Shown: piece by piece, positions 15,870 to 53,462 of the stretch | Layout: the number at the start of each line of letters is the position of its first letter | Numbering within the stretch: position 1 is the first letter of the stretch | Source of the DNA: Escherichia coli | GTDB lineage: Bacteria > Pseudomonadota > Gammaproteobacteria > Enterobacterales > Enterobacteriaceae | DNA length: 64,000 nucleotides | Assembly (NCBI RefSeq): GCF_002854065.1 | Contig: NZ_CP024147.1 | Strand: one strand, 5' to 3' | Program-made: the position numbers and the translations under genes | Notes under the pieces: model-generated | What the model was told of the DNA's origin: nothing | Databases searched by the model: none | Seen by the model: only the letters and a program-made list of their open reading frames with translations

Positions 15870-16777
15870 ATGAAAACGGGATCTAGTTTCATGTCGGTAT
15901 CGTTGGCTTAGGGTCAATGGGAATGGGAGCAGCACTGTCATGTGTCCGCGCAGGTCTTTCTACCTGGGGCGCAGACCTGAACAGCAATGCCTGCGCTACG
16001 TTGAAAGAGGCAGGTGCTTGCGGGGTTTCTGATAACGCCGCGACGTTTGCCGAAAAACTGGACGCTCTGCTGGTGCTGGTGGTCAATGCGGCCCAGGTTA
16101 AACAGGTGCTGTTTGGTGAAACAGGCGTTGCACAACATCTGAAACCCGGTACGGCAGTAATGGTTTCTTCCACTATCGCTAGTGCTGATGCGCAAGAAAT
16201 TGCTACCGCTCTGGCTGGATTCGATCTGGAAATGCTGGATGCGCCAGTTTCTGGTGGTGCAGTAAAAGCCGCTAACGGTGAAATGACTGTCATGGCCTCC
16301 GGTAGCGATATTGCCTTTGAACGACTGGCACCCGTGCTGGAAGCCGTTGCCGGAAAAGTTTATCGCATAGGTGCAGAACCGGGACTAGGTTCGACCGTAA
16401 AAATTATTCACCAGTTGTTAGCGGGCGTACATATTGCTGCCGGAGCCGAAGCGATGGCACTTGCAGCCCGTGCGGGGATCCCGCTGGATGTGATGTATGA
16501 CGTCGTGACCAATGCCGCCGGAAATTCCTGGATGTTCGAAAACCGGATGCGTCATGTGGTGGATGGCGATTACACCCCGCATTCAGCCGTCGATATTTTT
16601 GTTAAGGATCTTGGTCTGGTTGCCGATACAGCCAAAGCCCTGCACTTCCCGCTGCCATTGGCCTCAACAGCATTGAATATGTTCACCAGCGCCAGTAACG
16701 CGGGTTACGGGAAAGAAGACGATAGCGCAGTTATCAAGATTTTCTCTGGCATCACTCTACCGGGAGCGAAATCATGA
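15870..16777 (+). pseudogene. ygbJ: L-threonate dehydrogenase-like gene with a frameshift at codon 6
   Basis: ATG at 15870 reads MKTGS then hits TAG at 15909; FHVGIVGLGSMG Rossmann motif continues in another frame directly after a TAG. Confidence 0.6.
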
Positions 16778-18036
16778 TCAAGATTGGCGTTATCGCCGAT
16801 GATTTTACCGGCGCGACGGATATCGCCAGTTTTCTGGTGGAAAACGGTCTACCAACGGTACAAATTAACGGTGTTCCAACAGGTAAAATGCCGGAAGCAA
16901 TCGACGCACTGGTGATCAGCCTGAAAACGCGTTCCTGTCCGGTGGTTGAAGCCACACAGCAATCGCTGGCGGCTCTGAGCTGGTTGCAACAGCAAGGTTG
17001 CAAACAGATCTATTTCAAATACTGCTCTACTTTCGACAGTACGGCTAAAGGTAATATCGGCCCGGTTACCGATGCATTAATGGATGCTCTCGACACGCCG
17101 TTTACGGTCTTCTCTCCGGCCCTGCCGGTCAACGGACGTACGGTTTATCAGGGGTATTTGTTCGTAATGAATCAACTGCTGGCCGAATCCGGGATGCGCC
17201 ATCACCCGGTAAATCCCATGACCGACAGCTATCTTCCCCGTCTGGTTGAAGCGCAATCCACAGGGCGCTGCGGCGTCGTTTCGGCACATGTTTTCGAACA
17301 AGGTGTGGATGCCGTTCGTCAAGAGCTGGCTCGCTTACAGCAAGAGGGCTACCGCTACGCGGTGCTTGATGCGCTGACCGAACACCATCTGGAAATTCAG
17401 GGAGAAGCCTTGCGCGATGCCCCACTGGTAACGGGCGGTTCTGGTCTGGCGATTGGCCTGGCCCGGCAGTGGGCGCAAGAAAACGGTAACCAGGCTCGCA
17501 AAGCAGGGCATCCGCTCGCTGGGCGCGGCGTAGTGCTCTCCGGTTCATGCTCTCAAATGACCAACCGCCAGGTGGCACATTACCGTCAAATTGCACCAGC
17601 CCGTGAAGTTGATGTGGCACGCTGCCTCTCAATTGAAACTCTGGCCGCTTATGCACACGAACTGGCAGAGTGGGTTCTGGGCCAGGAAAGTGTACTTGCT
17701 CCACTGGTTTTTGCCACCGCCAGCACTGACGCATTGGCAGCAATTCAACAGCAATACGGTGCACAAAAAGCCAGTCAGGCAGTAGAAACACTGTTTTCTC
17801 AACTAGCGGCGCGGTTAGCAGCGGAAGGCGTGACACGCTTTATTGTCGCAGGCGGTGAGACCTCCGGCGTAGTCACACAGAGCCTGGGAATAAAAGGGTT
17901 TCATATTGGCCCAACCATTTCCCCCGGCGTGCCGTGGGTAAACGCACTGGATAAGCCTGTCTCACTCGCCCTTAAATCTGGCAACTTCGGTGATGAAGCC
18001 TTTTTTTCACGAGCCCAAAGAGAGTTTTTATCATGA
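16774..18036 (+). CDS. ygbK: 3-oxo-tetronate kinase (DUF1537 family)
   Basis: 420-aa ORF starting MIKIGVIADDFTGATD; overlaps ygbJ stop and ygbL start. Confidence 0.8.
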   Translation: MIKIGVIADDFTGATDIASFLVENGLPTVQINGVPTGKMPEAIDALVISLKTRSCPVVEATQQSLAALSWLQQQGCKQIYFKYCSTFDSTAKGNIGPVTDALMDALDTPFTVFSPALPVNGRTVYQGYLFVMNQLLAESGMRHHPVNPMTDSYLPRLVEAQSTGRCGVVSAHVFEQGVDAVRQELARLQQEGYRYAVLDALTEHHLEIQGEALRDAPLVTGGSGLAIGLARQWAQENGNQARKAGHPLAGRGVVLSGSCSQMTNRQVAHYRQIAPAREVDVARCLSIETLAAYAHELAEWVLGQESVLAPLVFATASTDALAAIQQQYGAQKASQAVETLFSQLAARLAAEGVTRFIVAGGETSGVVTQSLGIKGFHIGPTISPGVPWVNALDKPVSLALKSGNFGDEAFFSRAQREFLS

Positions 18037-18675: not shown

Positions 18676-19452
18676 ATGCCTCGTTTTGCAGCTAATTTAT
18701 CCATGATGTTCACCGAAGTGCCTTTTATTGAACGCTTCGCCGCAGCGCGAAAAGCCGGGTTCGATGCTGTGGAATTTCTGTTTCCCTATAACTACTCCAC
18801 CCTGCAAATCCAAAAGCAACTGGAGCAAAACCATCTGACACTGGCGCTGTTCAATACCGCTCCCGGAGATATTAATGCGGGGGAATGGGGATTATCCGCC
18901 CTTCCCGGACGTGAGCACGAAGCACACGCAGACATCGACCTGGCACTGGAATATGCATTGGCGCTCAATTGTGAACAAGTCCATGTAATGGCAGGCGTCG
19001 TGCCCGCTGCCGAAGATGCTGAACGGTACCGGGCAGTATTTATCGATAATCTCCGCTACGCTGCCGACCGCTTTGCGCCACACGGCAAGCGAATATTAGT
19101 TGAAGCACTCAGCCCCGGCATTAAGCCTCATTATCTCTTCTCCAGCCAGTATCAGGCACTGGCTATTGTTGAAGAAGTTGCGCGAGATAACGTGTTTATT
19201 CAACTAGATACTTTTCATGCGCAAAAAGTAGATGGCAACCTGACGCATTTAATCCGCGACTACGCCGGGAAATATGCGCACGTACAAATTGCCGGACTAC
19301 CTGATCGACATGAACCGGACGATGGAGAAATCAACTATCCGTGGCTGTTCCGCCTGTTCGATGAGGTGGGATATCAGGGCTGGATCGGTTGTGAATATAA
19401 ACCTCGTGGCCTCACCGAAGAAGGACTTGGCTGGTTTGACGCCTGGCGCTAA
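18676..19452 (+). CDS. ygbM: Hydroxypyruvate-isomerase-like TIM-barrel isomerase
   Basis: 258-aa ORF, xylose-isomerase-like TIM barrel. Confidence 0.8.
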
Positions 19453-19540: not shown

Positions 19541-20836
19541 ATGTCCACAATTACATTGTTATGCATTGCGTTAACTGGCGTAATCATGCTGTTGCTGCTG
19601 GTCATCAAGGCAAAGGTACAACCATTCGTTGCTCTGCTCCTCGTCAGCCTGTTAGTCGCACTTGCGGCGGGTATACCGGCGGGCGAAGTGGGTAAAGTGA
19701 TGATCGCCGGGATGGGCGGTGTGCTTGGTTCCGTCACTATTATTATTGGTCTGGGCGCTATGCTGGGGCGTATGATCGAACACTCTGGTGGTGCAGAGTC
19801 ACTGGCTAATTATTTCAGTCGCAAGTTAGGTGACAAACGAACTATCGCTGCGCTGACTCTGGCAGCGTTCTTCCTCGGTATTCCCGTCTTCTTTGATGTC
19901 GGCTTTATTATTCTTGCGCCAATCATTTACGGTTTTGCCAAGGTTGCCAAAATATCGCCACTCAAATTTGGCCTGCCTGTCGCTGGGATCATGCTAACTG
20001 TACATGTGGCGGTACCGCCGCATCCAGGCCCTGTCGCCGCAGCAGGGTTACTCCACGCAGACATCGGCTGGCTAACCATCATCGGTATTGCGATTTCTAT
20101 TCCCGTAGGGATTGTTGGCTACTTTGCAGCGAAAATAATCAATAAGCGCCAATATGCGATGTCGGTGGAAGTACTGGAACAGATGCAACTGGCTCCGGCC
20201 AGTGAGGAAGGCGCGACAAAATTAAGCGATAAAATAAATCCACCGGGCGTCGCGCTGGTCACCTCGCTAATTGTTATTCCTATCGCGATTATCATGGCGG
20301 GTACGGTTTCCGCAACACTGATGCCGCCTTCGCATCCCCTGCTTGGTACGCTACAGCTGATCGGCTCACCAATGGTAGCTCTAATGATTGCGCTGGTGCT
20401 GGCATTCTGGTTATTGGCTTTACGTCGCGGCTGGAGCTTACAACACACCAGCGACATTATGGGCTCAGCGCTTCCTACTGCGGCGGTAGTGATTTTGGTT
20501 ACTGGTGCTGGAGGGGTATTTGGCAAAGTGCTGGTGGAATCGGGCGTCGGCAAAGCCCTTGCCAACATGTTACAAATGATTGACCTGCCTCTGTTACCAG
20601 CCGCATTTATTATTTCACTGGCGCTGCGTGCATCGCAGGGGTCAGCAACCGTAGCAATACTGACAACCGGCGGGTTACTCTCAGAAGCGGTGATGGGATT
20701 GAATCCGATTCAGTGCGTATTGGTGACGCTGGCAGCCTGCTTTGGTGGGCTTGGTGCGTCACATATTAATGACTCAGGGTTCTGGATTGTGACCAAATAT
20801 CTGGGATTGTCGGTAGCAGACGGTCTGAAAACCTAG
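19541..20836 (+). CDS. ygbN: GntP-family permease, truncated by premature amber codon
   Basis: 431-aa ORF ends at TAG 20834-20836; same frame continues 22 hydrophobic codons (TVLTTILGFTGFLITWCVWAVI) to TGA at 20903-20905. Confidence 0.8.
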   Translation: MSTITLLCIALTGVIMLLLLVIKAKVQPFVALLLVSLLVALAAGIPAGEVGKVMIAGMGGVLGSVTIIIGLGAMLGRMIEHSGGAESLANYFSRKLGDKRTIAALTLAAFFLGIPVFFDVGFIILAPIIYGFAKVAKISPLKFGLPVAGIMLTVHVAVPPHPGPVAAAGLLHADIGWLTIIGIAISIPVGIVGYFAAKIINKRQYAMSVEVLEQMQLAPASEEGATKLSDKINPPGVALVTSLIVIPIAIIMAGTVSATLMPPSHPLLGTLQLIGSPMVALMIALVLAFWLLALRRGWSLQHTSDIMGSALPTAAVVILVTGAGGVFGKVLVESGVGKALANMLQMIDLPLLPAAFIISLALRASQGSATVAILTTGGLLSEAVMGLNPIQCVLVTLAACFGGLGASHINDSGFWIVTKYLGLSVADGLKT

Positions 20837-20913
20837 ACAGTGTTAACGACCATTCTCGGTTTTACCGGATTCTTAATTACCTGGTGCGTATGGGCGGTAA
20901 TTTGACCTTAATA

Positions 20914-20946
20914 AAAAGGTCCGATGAGCATCGGACCTTTTATTTA
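20914..20946. terminator. Bidirectional intrinsic terminator between ygbN and ecdD
   Basis: Perfect hairpin aaaaggtccgatg-agc-atcggacctttt flanked by A-run and T-run. Confidence 0.45.
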
Positions 20947-21180
20947 GCGCTTATCTGCCGCCAGCAGCGGCGGAATGCTCGGCACCATTGGCGCGTCATC
21001 AATATCTTTCTGCGTCATGCGGAACTCTTCGGGATAATGTTCGCGGCTGGTACGGCGCAGCGGTTCGGTATCGCGCCAGGTATAAAGGCAATGCTGGCAC
21101 TGATATACCGTCCAGACATCTTTCACCGGCGATTTCGCCATCACTTCAATCTGTTCATCGGCACAACGTGGACAAATCAT
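20944..21180 (-). CDS. ecdD: Phenolic acid decarboxylase small subunit D
   Basis: 78-aa ORF with CPRC...CQHC zinc-ribbon motifs, downstream of UbiD-like gene. Confidence 0.8.
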   Translation of the reverse strand: MICPRCADEQIEVMAKSPVKDVWTVYQCQHCLYTWRDTEPLRRTSREHYPEEFRMTQKDIDDAPMVPSIPPLLAADKR

Positions 21181-21190
21181 CTTCTTCTCC

Positions 21191-22618
21191 TTATTTACGT
21201 GCAGCCAGCATAGCGGTCAGTTTTTCAGCCCAGGCTTTGGTTTCCGGCAAATCCACCACCGGCTGGCTGTAGTGACCACGGTTGTCCGGGGCGACAGGCG
21301 TGGTGGCGTCGATAATCAGCTTGTCGGTGATCCCCGCCGGGCTTGAGCCAGGGTCGAGTTCCAGCACGGACATATTCGGCAACTGCACCAAATCCCCTGC
21401 CGGGTTCACTTTCGAGGAGAGCGCCCACATCACCTGCGGCAGGTTGAACGGATCAACGTCTTCATCGACCATAATCACCATCTTCACGTAGCCCAGACCG
21501 TGCGGCGTGGTCATCGCGCGCAGGCCCACCGCGCGGGCAAAGCCGCCGTAGCGTTTTTTGGTGGAGATAATCGCCAGCAGGCCGTGGGTGTACATGGCGT
21601 TTACCGCCTGCACTTCCGGGAACTCGGCTTTCAGTTGTTGATATAGCGGTACGCAGGTGGCTGGCCCCATCAGGTAGTCGATTTCGGTCCACGGCATGCC
21701 GAGGTACAGCGATTCGAAAATCGGCCTGGTGCGGTAAGAGACTTTATCGATGCGCACCACGGTCATGTTACGCCCGCCGGAGTAGTGTCCGGTAAACTCA
21801 CCGAACGGCCCTTCGATTTCGCGTTTACGGCTTTCGATGACCCCTTCGAGGATCGCTTCTGAACCCCACGGCACATCAAAACCGGTCAGCGGGGCGGTGG
21901 CGATCGGGTACGAGCTTTCACGCAGCGCGCCTGCCATTTCATACTCAGACTGATCGTATTTCAGCGGCGTGGCCCCCATCAGCGTGATGATCGGATCGTT
22001 ACCGAGCGTGATCGCAATCGGCAGATCTTCACCGCGCTCTTCTGCTTTATGCAGATGCAGGGCGATATCGTGCATCGGCACCGGTTGCAGGCCGAGCTTA
22101 CGCTTGCCCTTCACTTCCATGCGGTAGATGCCGACGTTCTGCTTGCCGAAGTTATCCGGGTCGAGCGGATCGCGGGAAACCACGCACGCTTTGTCGAGAT
22201 AGAAACCGCCATCACCGTCGTTTAAACGAAACAGCGGCAGGATATCGAACAGATTAATCTCGTCACCATCGACGGTGTTCTGCGCCCAGGCTGGATTGGC
22301 GCGGCGCTCCGGGGCAATCGGGAAGTTATCCCAGCGGCGGATAAACTCATCAATCTGTTTTTTAACCGGGGTGTTTGGCGGCAGGCCCAAGGAAATCGCG
22401 TGGTTCTGCCAGGAACCGATGGTATTCATCGCCACGCGGGCATCGGTAAAACCGCGAATATTATCAAACCACAGCGCCGGTGCACCATCGCCGATACGCC
22501 CGGTGGCGTTGGCAGCGGCAGCCAGATCCGGTTCCGCGTTCACCTCTTCGCTGATTTTCAGTAACTGGCCGTGGTCATCAAGCGCCTGTAAAAAGCTGCG
22601 TAAATCATCAAATGCCAT
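21191..22618 (-). CDS. ecdC: UbiD-family phenolic acid decarboxylase subunit C
   Basis: 475-aa ORF, UbiD-family decarboxylase. Confidence 0.85.
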   Translation of the reverse strand: MAFDDLRSFLQALDDHGQLLKISEEVNAEPDLAAAANATGRIGDGAPALWFDNIRGFTDARVAMNTIGSWQNHAISLGLPPNTPVKKQIDEFIRRWDNFPIAPERRANPAWAQNTVDGDEINLFDILPLFRLNDGDGGFYLDKACVVSRDPLDPDNFGKQNVGIYRMEVKGKRKLGLQPVPMHDIALHLHKAEERGEDLPIAITLGNDPIITLMGATPLKYDQSEYEMAGALRESSYPIATAPLTGFDVPWGSEAILEGVIESRKREIEGPFGEFTGHYSGGRNMTVVRIDKVSYRTRPIFESLYLGMPWTEIDYLMGPATCVPLYQQLKAEFPEVQAVNAMYTHGLLAIISTKKRYGGFARAVGLRAMTTPHGLGYVKMVIMVDEDVDPFNLPQVMWALSSKVNPAGDLVQLPNMSVLELDPGSSPAGITDKLIIDATTPVAPDNRGHYSQPVVDLPETKAWAEKLTAMLAARK

Positions 22619-23211
22619 TATTCATTCTCCTGAGAAAAATTCCGGGCCTGCGGCAATCCTTGCCAGCGCCTGGCGTAGGGATGTTCAAGGCCAAATTGAT
22701 CCAGCACGCGGGCTACCACGTGGTGGACAATGTCATCTACCGTTTCGGGATGGTTATAAAAGGCAGGCATCGGCGGCACCATCGCCACGCCCATGCGTGA
22801 AAGTGCGAGCATATTTTCGAGATGGATGGTGTTAAGCGGCATTTCACGCGGCACCAGTACCAGTTTGCGGCCTTCTTTGAGCACGACGTCCGCCGCGCGC
22901 CCTACCAGGCCATCGGCGTAACCAGCGCGGATACCGGCGAGCGTTTTCATACTGCACGGAATAACGATCATGCCGTCGGTACGAAAGGAACCTGAGGAGA
23001 TGGTCGCCGCCTGATCCGCCGGGTTATGGCTGAAGTCAGCGAGGGCAGCAACATCGCGGGCGCTGTAAGGCGTTTCCAGTTCAATGGTGGTTTTCGCCCA
23101 CTTCGACATCACCAGATGAGTCTCGATATTCGGCATCTCCTGCAGCGCTTGCAGTAATGCCACACCAAGAGGCGCACCGGTAGCCCCTGTCATCCCGACG
23201 ATCAGTTTCAT
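22618..23211 (-). CDS. ecdB: UbiX-like flavin prenyltransferase, decarboxylase subunit B
   Basis: 197-aa ORF starting MKLIVGMTGATGA, flavoprotein fold; overlaps ecdC start. Confidence 0.85.
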   Translation of the reverse strand: MKLIVGMTGATGAPLGVALLQALQEMPNIETHLVMSKWAKTTIELETPYSARDVAALADFSHNPADQAATISSGSFRTDGMIVIPCSMKTLAGIRAGYADGLVGRAADVVLKEGRKLVLVPREMPLNTIHLENMLALSRMGVAMVPPMPAFYNHPETVDDIVHHVVARVLDQFGLEHPYARRWQGLPQARNFSQENE

Positions 23212-23324
23212 TGCTTACTCTCTTAATTGTTCGTATACGAACGTTATTATTAAAATACGCCTCTGTTCTCATTGCGGCAAGCACTGAAAAGTAACAACAT
23301 CCCCTTCGTCACTGAAAAACCGCT

Positions 23325-23765
23325 ATGATAGCGGCAGATAGTTTGCCCGGAGTTTACATGGCGTTACGAAATAAAGCGTTCCATCAGTTACGACAGCTTT
23401 TTCAGCAGCACACATCTCGCTGGCAGCACGAGTTACCTGACCTGACCAAACCACAGTATGCGGTGATGCGTGCCATTGCTGATAAGCCTGGTATCGAACA
23501 GGTGGCACTGATAGAAGCAGCAGTCAGCACCAAAGCAACGCTGGCAGAAATGTTGGCAAGAATGGAAAATCGTGGCTTAGTCAGACGTGAACATGACGCC
23601 GCTGATAAGCGGCGACGCTTTGTCTGGCTGACTGCCGAAGGAGAAAAGATACTTGCTGCGGCGATACCGATTGGTGACAGCGTGGATGAGGAATTTTTGG
23701 GGCGTTTGAGTGCAGAAGAGCAGGAGCTGTTTATGCAGCTGGTGCGCAAGATGATGAACACATAG
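23325..23765 (+). CDS. MarR/SlyA-family transcriptional regulator, divergent from ecdBCD
   Basis: 146-aa ORF with winged-helix MarR signature. Confidence 0.75.
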   Translation: MIAADSLPGVYMALRNKAFHQLRQLFQQHTSRWQHELPDLTKPQYAVMRAIADKPGIEQVALIEAAVSTKATLAEMLARMENRGLVRREHDAADKRRRFVWLTAEGEKILAAAIPIGDSVDEEFLGRLSAEEQELFMQLVRKMMNT

Positions 23766-23885: not shown

Positions 23886-24878
23886 TTATTCGCGGAACAG
23901 CGCTTCGATATTCAGCCCCTGCGTTTGCAGGATTTCGCGCAAACGGCGCAGGCCTTCAACCTGAATCTGGCGAACACGTTCACGGGTGAGGCCAATTTCA
24001 CGACCTACATCTTCCAGTGTTGCCGCTTCGTACCCAAGCAAACCGAATCGACGTGCCAGCACTTCACGCTGTTTGGCGTTCAGTTCGAACAGCCATTTGA
24101 CGATGCTCTGCTTCATATCGTCATCTTGCGTGGTATCTTCCGGACCGTTCTCTTTTTCATCGGCCAGGATGTCCAGCAACGCTTTTTCGGAATCACCACC
24201 CAGCGGGGTGTCTACCGAGGTAATGCGCTCGTTAAGACGAAGCATACGGCTGACGTCATCAACTGGCTTATCCAGTTGCTCTGCGATCTCTTCCGCACTT
24301 GGTTCATGGTCCAGCTTATGGGACAACTCACGTGCGGTTCGCAGGTAAACGTTCAGCTCCTTTACGATGTGAATCGGCAAACGAATAGTACGGGTTTGGT
24401 TCATAATCGCCCGTTCAATCGTCTGGCGAATCCACCAGGTTGCGTATGTTGAGAAGCGGAAACCACGTTCCGGGTCAAACTTCTCTACCGCGCGGATCAG
24501 CCCCAGGTTGCCCTCTTCGATAAGGTCCAGCAACGCCAGACCACGATTGCCATAACGGCGGGCAATTTTTACCACCAGACGCAAGTTACTCTCGATCATC
24601 CGGCGGCGAGAGGCGACATCTCCACGCAGTGCGCGACGCGCAAAATAAACTTCTTCTTCGGCCGTTAACAGTGGTGAATAACCAATCTCACCAAGGTAAA
24701 GCTGAGTCGCGTCCAACACACGCTGTGTGGCTCCCTGCGATAACAGTTCCTCTTCGGCCAAATCGTTATCACTGGGTTCCTCTTCTACTAAGGCCTTTTC
24801 GTCAAAAACCTCAACTCCGTTCTCATCAAATTCCGCATCTTCATTTAAATCATGAACTTTCAGCGTATTCTGACTCAT
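23886..24878 (-). CDS. rpoS: RNA polymerase sigma factor RpoS (sigma38), full length
   Basis: Start at [17 protein letters not shown] inside longer ORF; 330 aa; codon 33 is GAG, no internal stop. Confidence 0.95.
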
Positions 24879-52520: not shown

Positions 52521-52692
52521 ATGAAAAAGGATTTAAACATGCTCAGGATATTCATCGTAATTATATTTATTTTCAATTTATCAGGCTGTGGATATAACGA
52601 TATTCAAACCTATGATGAGCAGGTTAACGCCTCCTGGTCTGAGGTATTAAATCAATATCAACGTCGCGCCGATCTTATTCCTAATCTTGTCG
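52521..52692 (+). pseudogene. LemA-family lipoprotein gene, 5' fragment truncated by IS1
   Basis: AAGGA RBS; MKKDLNMLRIFIVIIFIFNLSGCGYN... with LSGC lipobox; reading frame runs into IS1 left end after 57 codons. Confidence 0.6.
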
Positions 52693-52747
52693 GGTGATGC
52701 TGCCAACTTACTGATTTAGTGTATGATGGTGTTTTTGAGGTGCTCCA

Positions 52748-53023
52748 GTGGCTTCTGTTTCTATCAGCTGTCCCTCCTGTTCAGCTACTGACGGGGTGGT
52801 GCGTAACGGCAAAAGCACTGCCGGACATCAGCGCTATCTCTGCTCTCACTGCCGTAAAACATGGCAACTGCAGTTCACTTACACCGCTTCTCAACCCGGT
52901 ACGCACCAGAAAATCATTGATATGGCCATGAATGGCGTTGGATGCCGGGCAACCGCCCGCATTATGGGCGTTGGCCTCAACACGATTTTCCGCCATTTAA
53001 AAAACTCAGGCCGCAGTCGGTAA
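52748..53023 (+). CDS. insA: IS1 InsA
   Basis: 91 aa [21 protein letters not shown]..., GTG start. Confidence 0.9.
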
Positions 53024-53445
53024 CCTCGCGCATACAGCCGGGCAGTGACGTCATCGTCTGCGCGGAAATGGACGAACAGTGGGGATACGTCGGGGCTAAA
53101 TCGCGCCAGCGCTGGCTGTTTTACGCGTATGACAGGCTCCGGAAGACGGTTGTTGCGCACGTATTCGGTGAACGCACTATGGCGACGCTGGGGCGTCTTA
53201 TGAGCCTGCTGTCACCCTTTGACGTGGTGATATGGATGACGGATGGCTGGCCGCTGTATGAATCCCGCCTGAAGGGAAAGCTGCACGTAATCAGCAAGCG
53301 ATATACGCAGCGAATTGAGCGGCATAACCTGAATCTGAGGCAGCACCTGGCACGGCTGGGACGGAAGTCGCTGTCGTTCTCAAAATCGGTGGAGCTGCAT
53401 GACAAAGTCATCGGGCATTATCTGAACATAAAACACTATCAATAA
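52942..53445 (+). CDS. insB: IS1 InsB (transposase C-terminal part, expressed as InsAB' by -1 frameshift)
   Basis: 167-aa ORF in -1 frame relative to insA, recognised IS1 InsB. Confidence 0.85.
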
Positions 53446-53462
53446 GTTGGAGTCATTACCTG

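Follow-up and report, generated by a model that had tools for sequence, protein, structure and literature searches.

Why does the ygbN gene of an Escherichia coli strain stop after 431 codons, and does the shortened product still work as a transporter? In the window (the whole 64-kb stretch of DNA that was analyzed), a first-pass annotation had placed the end of a GntP family permease gene at the TAG codon 20834 to 20836, after 431 codons, and had noted that the same frame runs on over 22 sense codons to a TGA at 20903 to 20905. Indeed, both readings were confirmed, and the 22 codons between the two stops are TVLTTILGFTGFLITWCVWAVI. The features at this end of the gene are as follows.

19541 to 20836, plus strand: truncated ygbN coding sequence with an ATG start, 431 codons and TAG (from the list of open reading frames and the translation)
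20834 to 20836, plus strand: premature amber codon TAG, codon 432 (from base-by-base comparison with K-12 and counts in complete genomes)
20837 to 20902, plus strand: orphaned 22 codons, residues 433 to 454 of intact YgbN (from the translation; same as the K-12 tail)
20903 to 20905, plus strand: original ygbN stop codon TGA (from the K-12 annotation)

That the gene is ygbN, as had been proposed, was supported by a match of the 431-aa product to the NCBIfam equivalog profile for YgbN (NF007332) with 779 bits, against a cutoff of 524, and by a match to the Pfam family GntP_permease. The ortholog in K-12 (b2740; NF007332/PF02447) is likewise positioned after ygbM, and the length of 454 aa that the first-pass annotation had given for it agrees with both the W3110 annotation and the alignment. 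The window differed from ygbN of K-12 W3110 at 13 of 1365 nucleotides (99% identity), and the protein was identical at 451 of 454 codon positions, the only residue changes being A12T, V191I and W432*. Codon 432 reads TGG (Trp432) in K-12 and TAG in the window, owing to a single G-to-A change at 20835; the suspected TGG-to-TAG mutation was thus located by the alignment. Behind the stop, the 22-residue tail showed no difference from K-12, but the window product itself is 23 residues shorter than K-12 YgbN and is without the final helix. Since a run of 22 codons without a stop has a computed probability of about 35% by chance alone, the open run downstream of the TAG is weak proof taken by itself, and it is the comparison with K-12 that is decisive.

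Whether a stop at this position is natural in most strains was read from the allele counts in all complete genomes, searched with 55-mers centered on the variant base, so that each 28-base seed word contains it. Of the 5,426 complete E. coli genomes, 4,572 carried the TGG allele and 2 the TAG allele, and ygbN was absent from about 825 (~15%). With 2 genomes against 4,572, TGG is the ancestral state and the stop is a rare allele rather than the natural terminus. The two carriers are strain 100416 (human stool, Gambia) and strain CUWW06 (wastewater, Thailand), and both were 99.95 to 99.99% identical to the window over 48 to 50 kb, with about 5 SNPs in 48 kb within the lineage. IS1, IS421 and island insertions are placed differently in the window, 100416 and CUWW06, and this, together with the near-identity, shows that the window is distinct from both records and comes from a third representative of the lineage. 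In a large assembly collection, the exact 431-aa product was present on 176 contigs and in 258 blocks, among them MEGAHIT- and SPAdes-style metagenome contigs and an isolate draft from 2014, and the gene neighborhood around it was constant on the contigs examined. Since the product occurs on so many contigs, including short-read-style assemblies, the stop is inherited and not a read error. Moreover, the allele is already flagged as a pseudogene in public annotation: in both TAG genomes, PGAP describes ygbN as a GntP family transporter pseudogene with an "internal stop." The ygbN coding sequence of the lineage is otherwise without further decay, and the orphaned tails are all identical. Dating of the allele by decay of the tail was of no use, since the tails are identical and the lineage is too young. 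The ygbN stop is an ordinary inactivating mutation, a nonsense allele specific to this lineage in a transporter gene that E. coli can do without.

How did this mutation arise? The ancestral sequence around codon 432 is AAAACCTGGACAG, and the G-to-A change at 20835 corresponds to a C-to-T change at the inner, methylatable C of a CCAGG motif on the minus strand. Two Dcm sites at this end of the gene are of importance.

20832 to 20836, no strand assigned: former Dcm site, ancestral CCTGG, now CCTAG
20880 to 20884, no strand assigned: second Dcm site, CCTGG, at Trp448 (codon 20882 to 20884), intact in the window (from the list of sites)

There are three Dcm (CCWGG) sites in ygbN, and deamination leads to a stop at only two of them, W432 and W448. 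Deamination of Dcm-made 5-methylcytosine is the mechanism of the classic lacI amber hotspots and is countered by Vsr repair (PMC12606429, PMC2715241). The lacI hotspots (Coulondre, Miller et al. 1978, as described in PMC12606429) share with ygbN a G:C-to-A:T change at the inner C of CCWGG that gives TAG, and, like the W432 and W448 ambers, they recurred independently. In lacI, the change is CAG to TAG on the coding strand, whereas in ygbN the deaminated C lies on the noncoding strand and the change is TGG to TAG. Furthermore, the lacI hotspots were measured in the laboratory, whereas the evidence for ygbN is recurrence among natural isolates, with no measured rate. The single G:C-to-A:T transition at 20835 turned Trp432 TGG into amber TAG, and its most likely cause is that a 5-methylcytosine was spontaneously deaminated to thymine and missed by very-short-patch repair. 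Both dcm and vsr are annotated and intact in CUWW06, the closest complete relative, as judged by gene annotation only. An ordinary replication error gives the same G-to-A transition. As judged from sequence context and recurrence, an origin of the W432 amber by Dcm deamination is likely rather than proven.

The recurrence was addressed by searching all 24 possible transition-to-stop alleles of ygbN together against the complete genomes. Only 4 of the 24 were seen: W432am (2 genomes), W448am (4 genomes), W298am (3 genomes) and an ochre codon at Q27 (1 genome). W298, which is not a Dcm site, was hit about as frequently as the Dcm sites. Nevertheless, both Dcm stop alleles are among the four seen of 24 (P = 0.022), and at least three of five independent events fell on 2 of 24 sites (P = 0.005), with small counts and with independence judged from flanking sequence. 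Stops recurred more often at Dcm sites than at comparable non-Dcm sites, again on small counts. A second origin of W432am is indicated by locus L008. Although its 431-aa protein is identical, 423 of 21,296 positions differ between L008 and the window, 11 of them at synonymous sites in ygbN. Over the same 21,296 nt, a lone substitution, again this G-to-A change, separates L008 from CFSAN061763, a genome with TGG. Since L008 is one substitution away from CFSAN061763 and 423 away from the window, an independent event is the reading that we follow. Recombination over a short tract was considered as the source of the TAG in L008; it needs a tract of less than about 120 bp (differences at 20809 and 20927) and was judged less likely.

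At the second site, W448am products came as three distinct 447-aa proteins on 71, 55 and 2 contigs, found in an ST131-type background, in a strain with a K-12-like ygbN-rpoS junction and in Shigella sonnei, respectively. These alleles (WP_135103473.1 in the ST131-type strains, WP_181046830.1 and the Shigella sonnei form) affect the same gene by the same CCTGG-to-CCTAG change and likewise hit the last helix. They drop 7 residues and are annotated as normal GntP transporters, whereas the W432am form drops 23 and is annotated as a pseudogene. Public annotation is thus inconsistent, in that the 431-aa form is a pseudogene and the 447-aa form is normal, although both arise by the same mechanism. 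The Dcm context, the second origin of W432am and the recurrence at W448 in at least three backgrounds are new here and go beyond the first-pass annotation.

What does the protein lose? The window product matched NF007332 over positions 1 to 431 of 454 only, and it scored 328 bits (cutoff, 293) with TIGR00791, of which positions 3 to 416 of 439 were matched. The intact YgbN ortholog, in contrast, is covered by PF02447 (GntP_permease) from residue 5 to 453 (E = 2e-154), and the paralog profiles GntT, GntU, GntP, DsdX and TIGR00791 run about 15 to 24 positions past residue 431. The window product therefore lacks the complete GntP architecture with its C-terminal helix (profile to about position 439/440; equivalog, 454 of 454) and is a truncated member of the GntP family, a pseudogene of the family. 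In a word-indexed protein search, all hits were near-identical E. coli sequences of 454 aa, which told nothing about conservation in the family. Conservation was instead read from an alignment of 102 full-length homologs, 27 to 55% identical to YgbN, from a representative library at 50% identity. Columns 432 to 454 had at most two gaps, and the last helix was kept in all 102 sequences. Trp432 was retained in 76 of the 102, and Thr or Ser at position 433 was found in 97. Directly before the last helix lies the most conserved motif of GntP proteins, S407-H-x-N-D-x-G-F-W415, with S407, H408, N410, D411, F414 and W415 as its top conserved residues.

An AlphaFold2 model of YgbN built on the homolog alignment had a mean pLDDT of 92.4 and a pTM of 0.92. 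Its last helix spans residues 425 to 453 (29 residues), in agreement with the earlier proposal that the stop cuts the last predicted transmembrane helix; with a stop at codon 432, only the first seven residues of this helix remain. By sequence search, no homolog of YgbN was found among solved structures. A Foldseek search with the model led to the folds of TRAP SiaQM, VcINDY/DASS and AbgT with TM-scores of 0.6 to 0.67, and by fold YgbN would be an elevator-type permease of the ion-transporter superfamily. Translation of the allele would be ended by RF1 at codon 432 and would yield a 431-residue protein, and the 22 orphaned codons would now be translated only by rare readthrough. Since only seven of 29 helix residues are left and the helix adjoins the top conserved motif, the truncated YgbN is probably misfolded, unstable or inactive, as far as alignment and model can tell. 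On the other hand, PGAP calls the 447-aa W448 amber product normal, and some loss at the C terminus may hence be compatible with function.

ygbN is the last gene of a cluster composed of the repressor gene ygbI and ltnD-otnK-otnC-otnI(ygbM)-ygbN, as seen in the annotation of related genomes and the gene calls in six loci. YgbI represses ygbJKLMN (PMC8464067), and mutations in ygbI arise when cells are evolved on m-tartrate in the laboratory (PMC6452873). L-Threonate is converted to dihydroxyacetone-phosphate in four steps by the enzymes that the cluster encodes (Zhang et al. 2016, as cited in PMC12540250). The papers found deal with regulation by YgbI and with these enzymes, and none of them assigns a substrate to YgbN by experiment. 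Downstream of ygbN, one further feature is present.

20914 to 20941, no strand assigned: symmetrical, GC-rich hairpin with runs of A and T on its sides (RNA folding energy, -17.3 kcal/mol; z = -5.0 relative to shuffled sequences)

This hairpin sits between the convergent ygbN and the gene for a decarboxylase subunit D. It was found by direct folding and was not listed by a consensus terminator scan; its structure suggests that it is likely a bidirectional intrinsic terminator. Since ygbN is the last gene before the terminator, no polar effect is expected from the premature stop.

Several other genes of the cluster and its surroundings deserve mention. In the window, ltnD (ygbJ; 15870 to 16777) has a 1-nt deletion at about 15885, in codon 6, where relatives read GGGATCTGAGTTT and the window reads GGGATCTAGTTT. 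The deletion yields the product MKTGSSFMSVSLA* and leaves a 286-codon open reading frame from 15917, which is without the N-terminal GxGxxG NAD-binding motif. ltnD is intact with 302 codons in 9 of 9 other loci, including both relatives of the lineage. Either the operon has a second lesion private to the window, or the deletion, which lies next to a GATC Dam site, is an assembly error. In otnK (ygbK) of K-12 W3110 (L002, 235 to 1401), one nucleotide is missing at gene position 1148 compared with the gene in the window (16774 to 18036); this frameshift gives 388 aa versus 420 aa in the window and its relatives, and the K-12 form is annotated as normal. ygbM (18676 to 19452), which we take to be the gene for the 2-oxo-tetronate isomerase OtnI of the cluster, is called "HPr family phosphocarrier protein" by PGAP in all records examined. 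The domain of its product is AP_endonuc_2, a xylose-isomerase-like TIM barrel (PF01261), and the RefSeq name looks misleading. PMC12540250 lists OtnI among the steps of this pathway in E. coli and does not name its gene.

Between ygbN and rpoS, the window (20944 to 23765) has a hydroxyarylic acid decarboxylase B/C/D operon, whose members are a UbiX-like flavoprotein, a UbiD-family protein and the small subunit D, and a divergent MarR regulator. K-12, in contrast, is without this insert, and ST131-type strains have other genes at this place, including one for an MBL-fold hydrolase. The mutS-rpoS region is well known to be polymorphic, and rpoS is a frequent target of inactivating mutations. rpoS of the window (23886 to 24878, minus strand) is an open reading frame that appears intact, and the relatives encode WP_000081550.1. 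W3110-P, in contrast to the window lineage with its intact rpoS, has an "internal stop" in rpoS, in the same neighborhood as ygbN but in a different gene; the rpoS stop of K-12 is presumably an amber codon as well. Elsewhere in the window, a copy of IS1 is located at 52675 to 53460 (junction, 53460/53461), and about 1.9 kb beside it, with parts of a LemA-family and of a TPM-domain pseudogene, are missing in comparison with strain 100416. CUWW06 carries IS1 in the ygcW gene for an SDR oxidoreductase, and this copy is absent from the window at about 48036. In strain 100416, an island (L004, 3412 to 12350) adjoins mutS on its pphB-distal side and contains a type I restriction-modification system together with IS1 and IS3 elements and a fragment of an integrase; pphB itself is interrupted by an IS1 copy. 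Both the island and this IS1 are absent from the window and from CUWW06. IS1 activity varies among the members of this young lineage.

The stop could be explained in other ways than by an inherited inactivating mutation. Nanopore basecallers are prone to miscalls at Dcm (CCWGG) and Dam (GATC) sites, and position 20835 does fall in a Dcm motif; moreover, the private 1-nt deletion in ltnD of the window, present in no relative, lies beside a GATC and is of an error kind typical of such assemblies. The A at 20835 could thus be a sequencing or assembly artefact, such as a methylation-induced consensus error. However, two complete genomes from independent assemblies share this TAG, as do at least five further loci, and the latter include the MEGAHIT- and SPAdes-style metagenome contigs and the 2014 isolate draft; the 176 contigs with the 431-aa product likewise speak against an artefact. 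In addition, 177 other CCWGG sites are kept in the window, L008 keeps 52 of 53 Dcm sites in comparison with its nearest relative, which argues against a systematic error, and the remaining differences between the window and CUWW06 fall outside methylation motifs. We therefore reject a nanopore methylation artefact for the lineage-wide TAG in view of the independent assemblies and the 177 kept CCWGG sites, and we consider an error of any such kind at 20835 extremely improbable. The base, for which a check of read depth and quality had been proposed, is an A in many independent assemblies. A real amber codon might nevertheless be suppressed, so that full-length YgbN is made by means of an amber or ochre suppressor tRNA or by efficient readthrough and the gene remains functional. 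The 22 codons past the TAG are still intact and identical to K-12, and low-level natural readthrough of UAG occurs in E. coli. In a lineage as young as this one, with about 5 SNPs in 48 kb, an intact tail is uninformative, however, and no tRNA genes were found in the 64-kb window. The first-pass annotation had asked for a check for suppressors, and we searched the 5,426 complete genomes with suppressor-anticodon 55-mers for supE, supF, supD, supP and trpT-CUA and for the ochre suppressors of glnU/W, tyrT/V and the lysT family. As a positive control, supE was recovered in 158 genomes, and among the 60 of 160 matches listed almost all were K-12 laboratory derivatives; strain 100416 was absent among these 60. 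supF, supD, supP, trpT-CUA and the ochre alleles of glnU, tyrT and lysT were found in two strains only, both outside the lineage, and all tested alleles except supE were absent from both related complete genomes. Both Gln tRNA genes read in CUWW06, glnV and glnX, retain the wild-type anticodon CUG, so supE is absent there and none of the tested alleles is present in the closest complete relative. Suppression of the ygbN amber is therefore very improbable.

It might also be argued that the 431-aa permease is still functional, or changed in function, and that truncation at W432 and W448 recurs by selection and not by a mutational hotspot alone. Stops at the two Trp codons near the C terminus have originated at least five times and persist on tens to hundreds of contigs, the rest of ygbN shows no further decay in the lineage, and the neighboring enzyme genes are intact in all relatives. 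But a bias in mutation accounts for the recurrence, given that W432 and W448 are precisely the two codons that become stops upon Dcm deamination, and the last helix is present in 102 of 102 homologs. Furthermore, loss of the gene is tolerated, given the ~15% of complete genomes without ygbN, and the lineages are too young for the lack of further decay to count. We regard a functional or altered 431-aa permease maintained by selection as unlikely. A more specific form of the idea, in which repeated loss of the last helix is itself selected and acts as a contingency-like, methylation-driven switch in unrelated E. coli and Shigella lineages, appears quite unlikely. If it were true, selection might, for example, block the uptake of a harmful analogue of C4 acid sugars in the gut; alternatively, the gain might be a shortened transporter with altered properties. 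With all of this considered, an inherited nonsense allele of ygbN that arose by a transition at 20835 through Dcm deamination and led to loss of function is, in our view, highly probable as the overall explanation.

For the physiology of the strains, loss of ygbN function in the lineage is likely, as suggested by the sequence and the model. The lineage would thereby lose the YgbN-borne uptake of the C4 sugar acid used by the adjacent genes (L-threonate by annotation), and on this predicted basis the YgbN route of entry for the substrate of the ltnD-otnK-otnC-otnI pathway is probably closed. The absence of ygbN from about 15% of the complete genomes shows that such a loss is tolerated, and the lineage has been sampled on at least two continents (Gambia, stool; Thailand, wastewater) and is also found on well over a hundred other contigs. 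In metabolic models and in the prediction of phenotypes, ygbN of these strains should be treated as inactive. More generally, Dcm methylation creates predictable nonsense hotspots, and in ygbN both such sites have been hit repeatedly in wild populations. The ygbN ambers do not change current understanding but provide a natural example of a textbook mutational mechanism.
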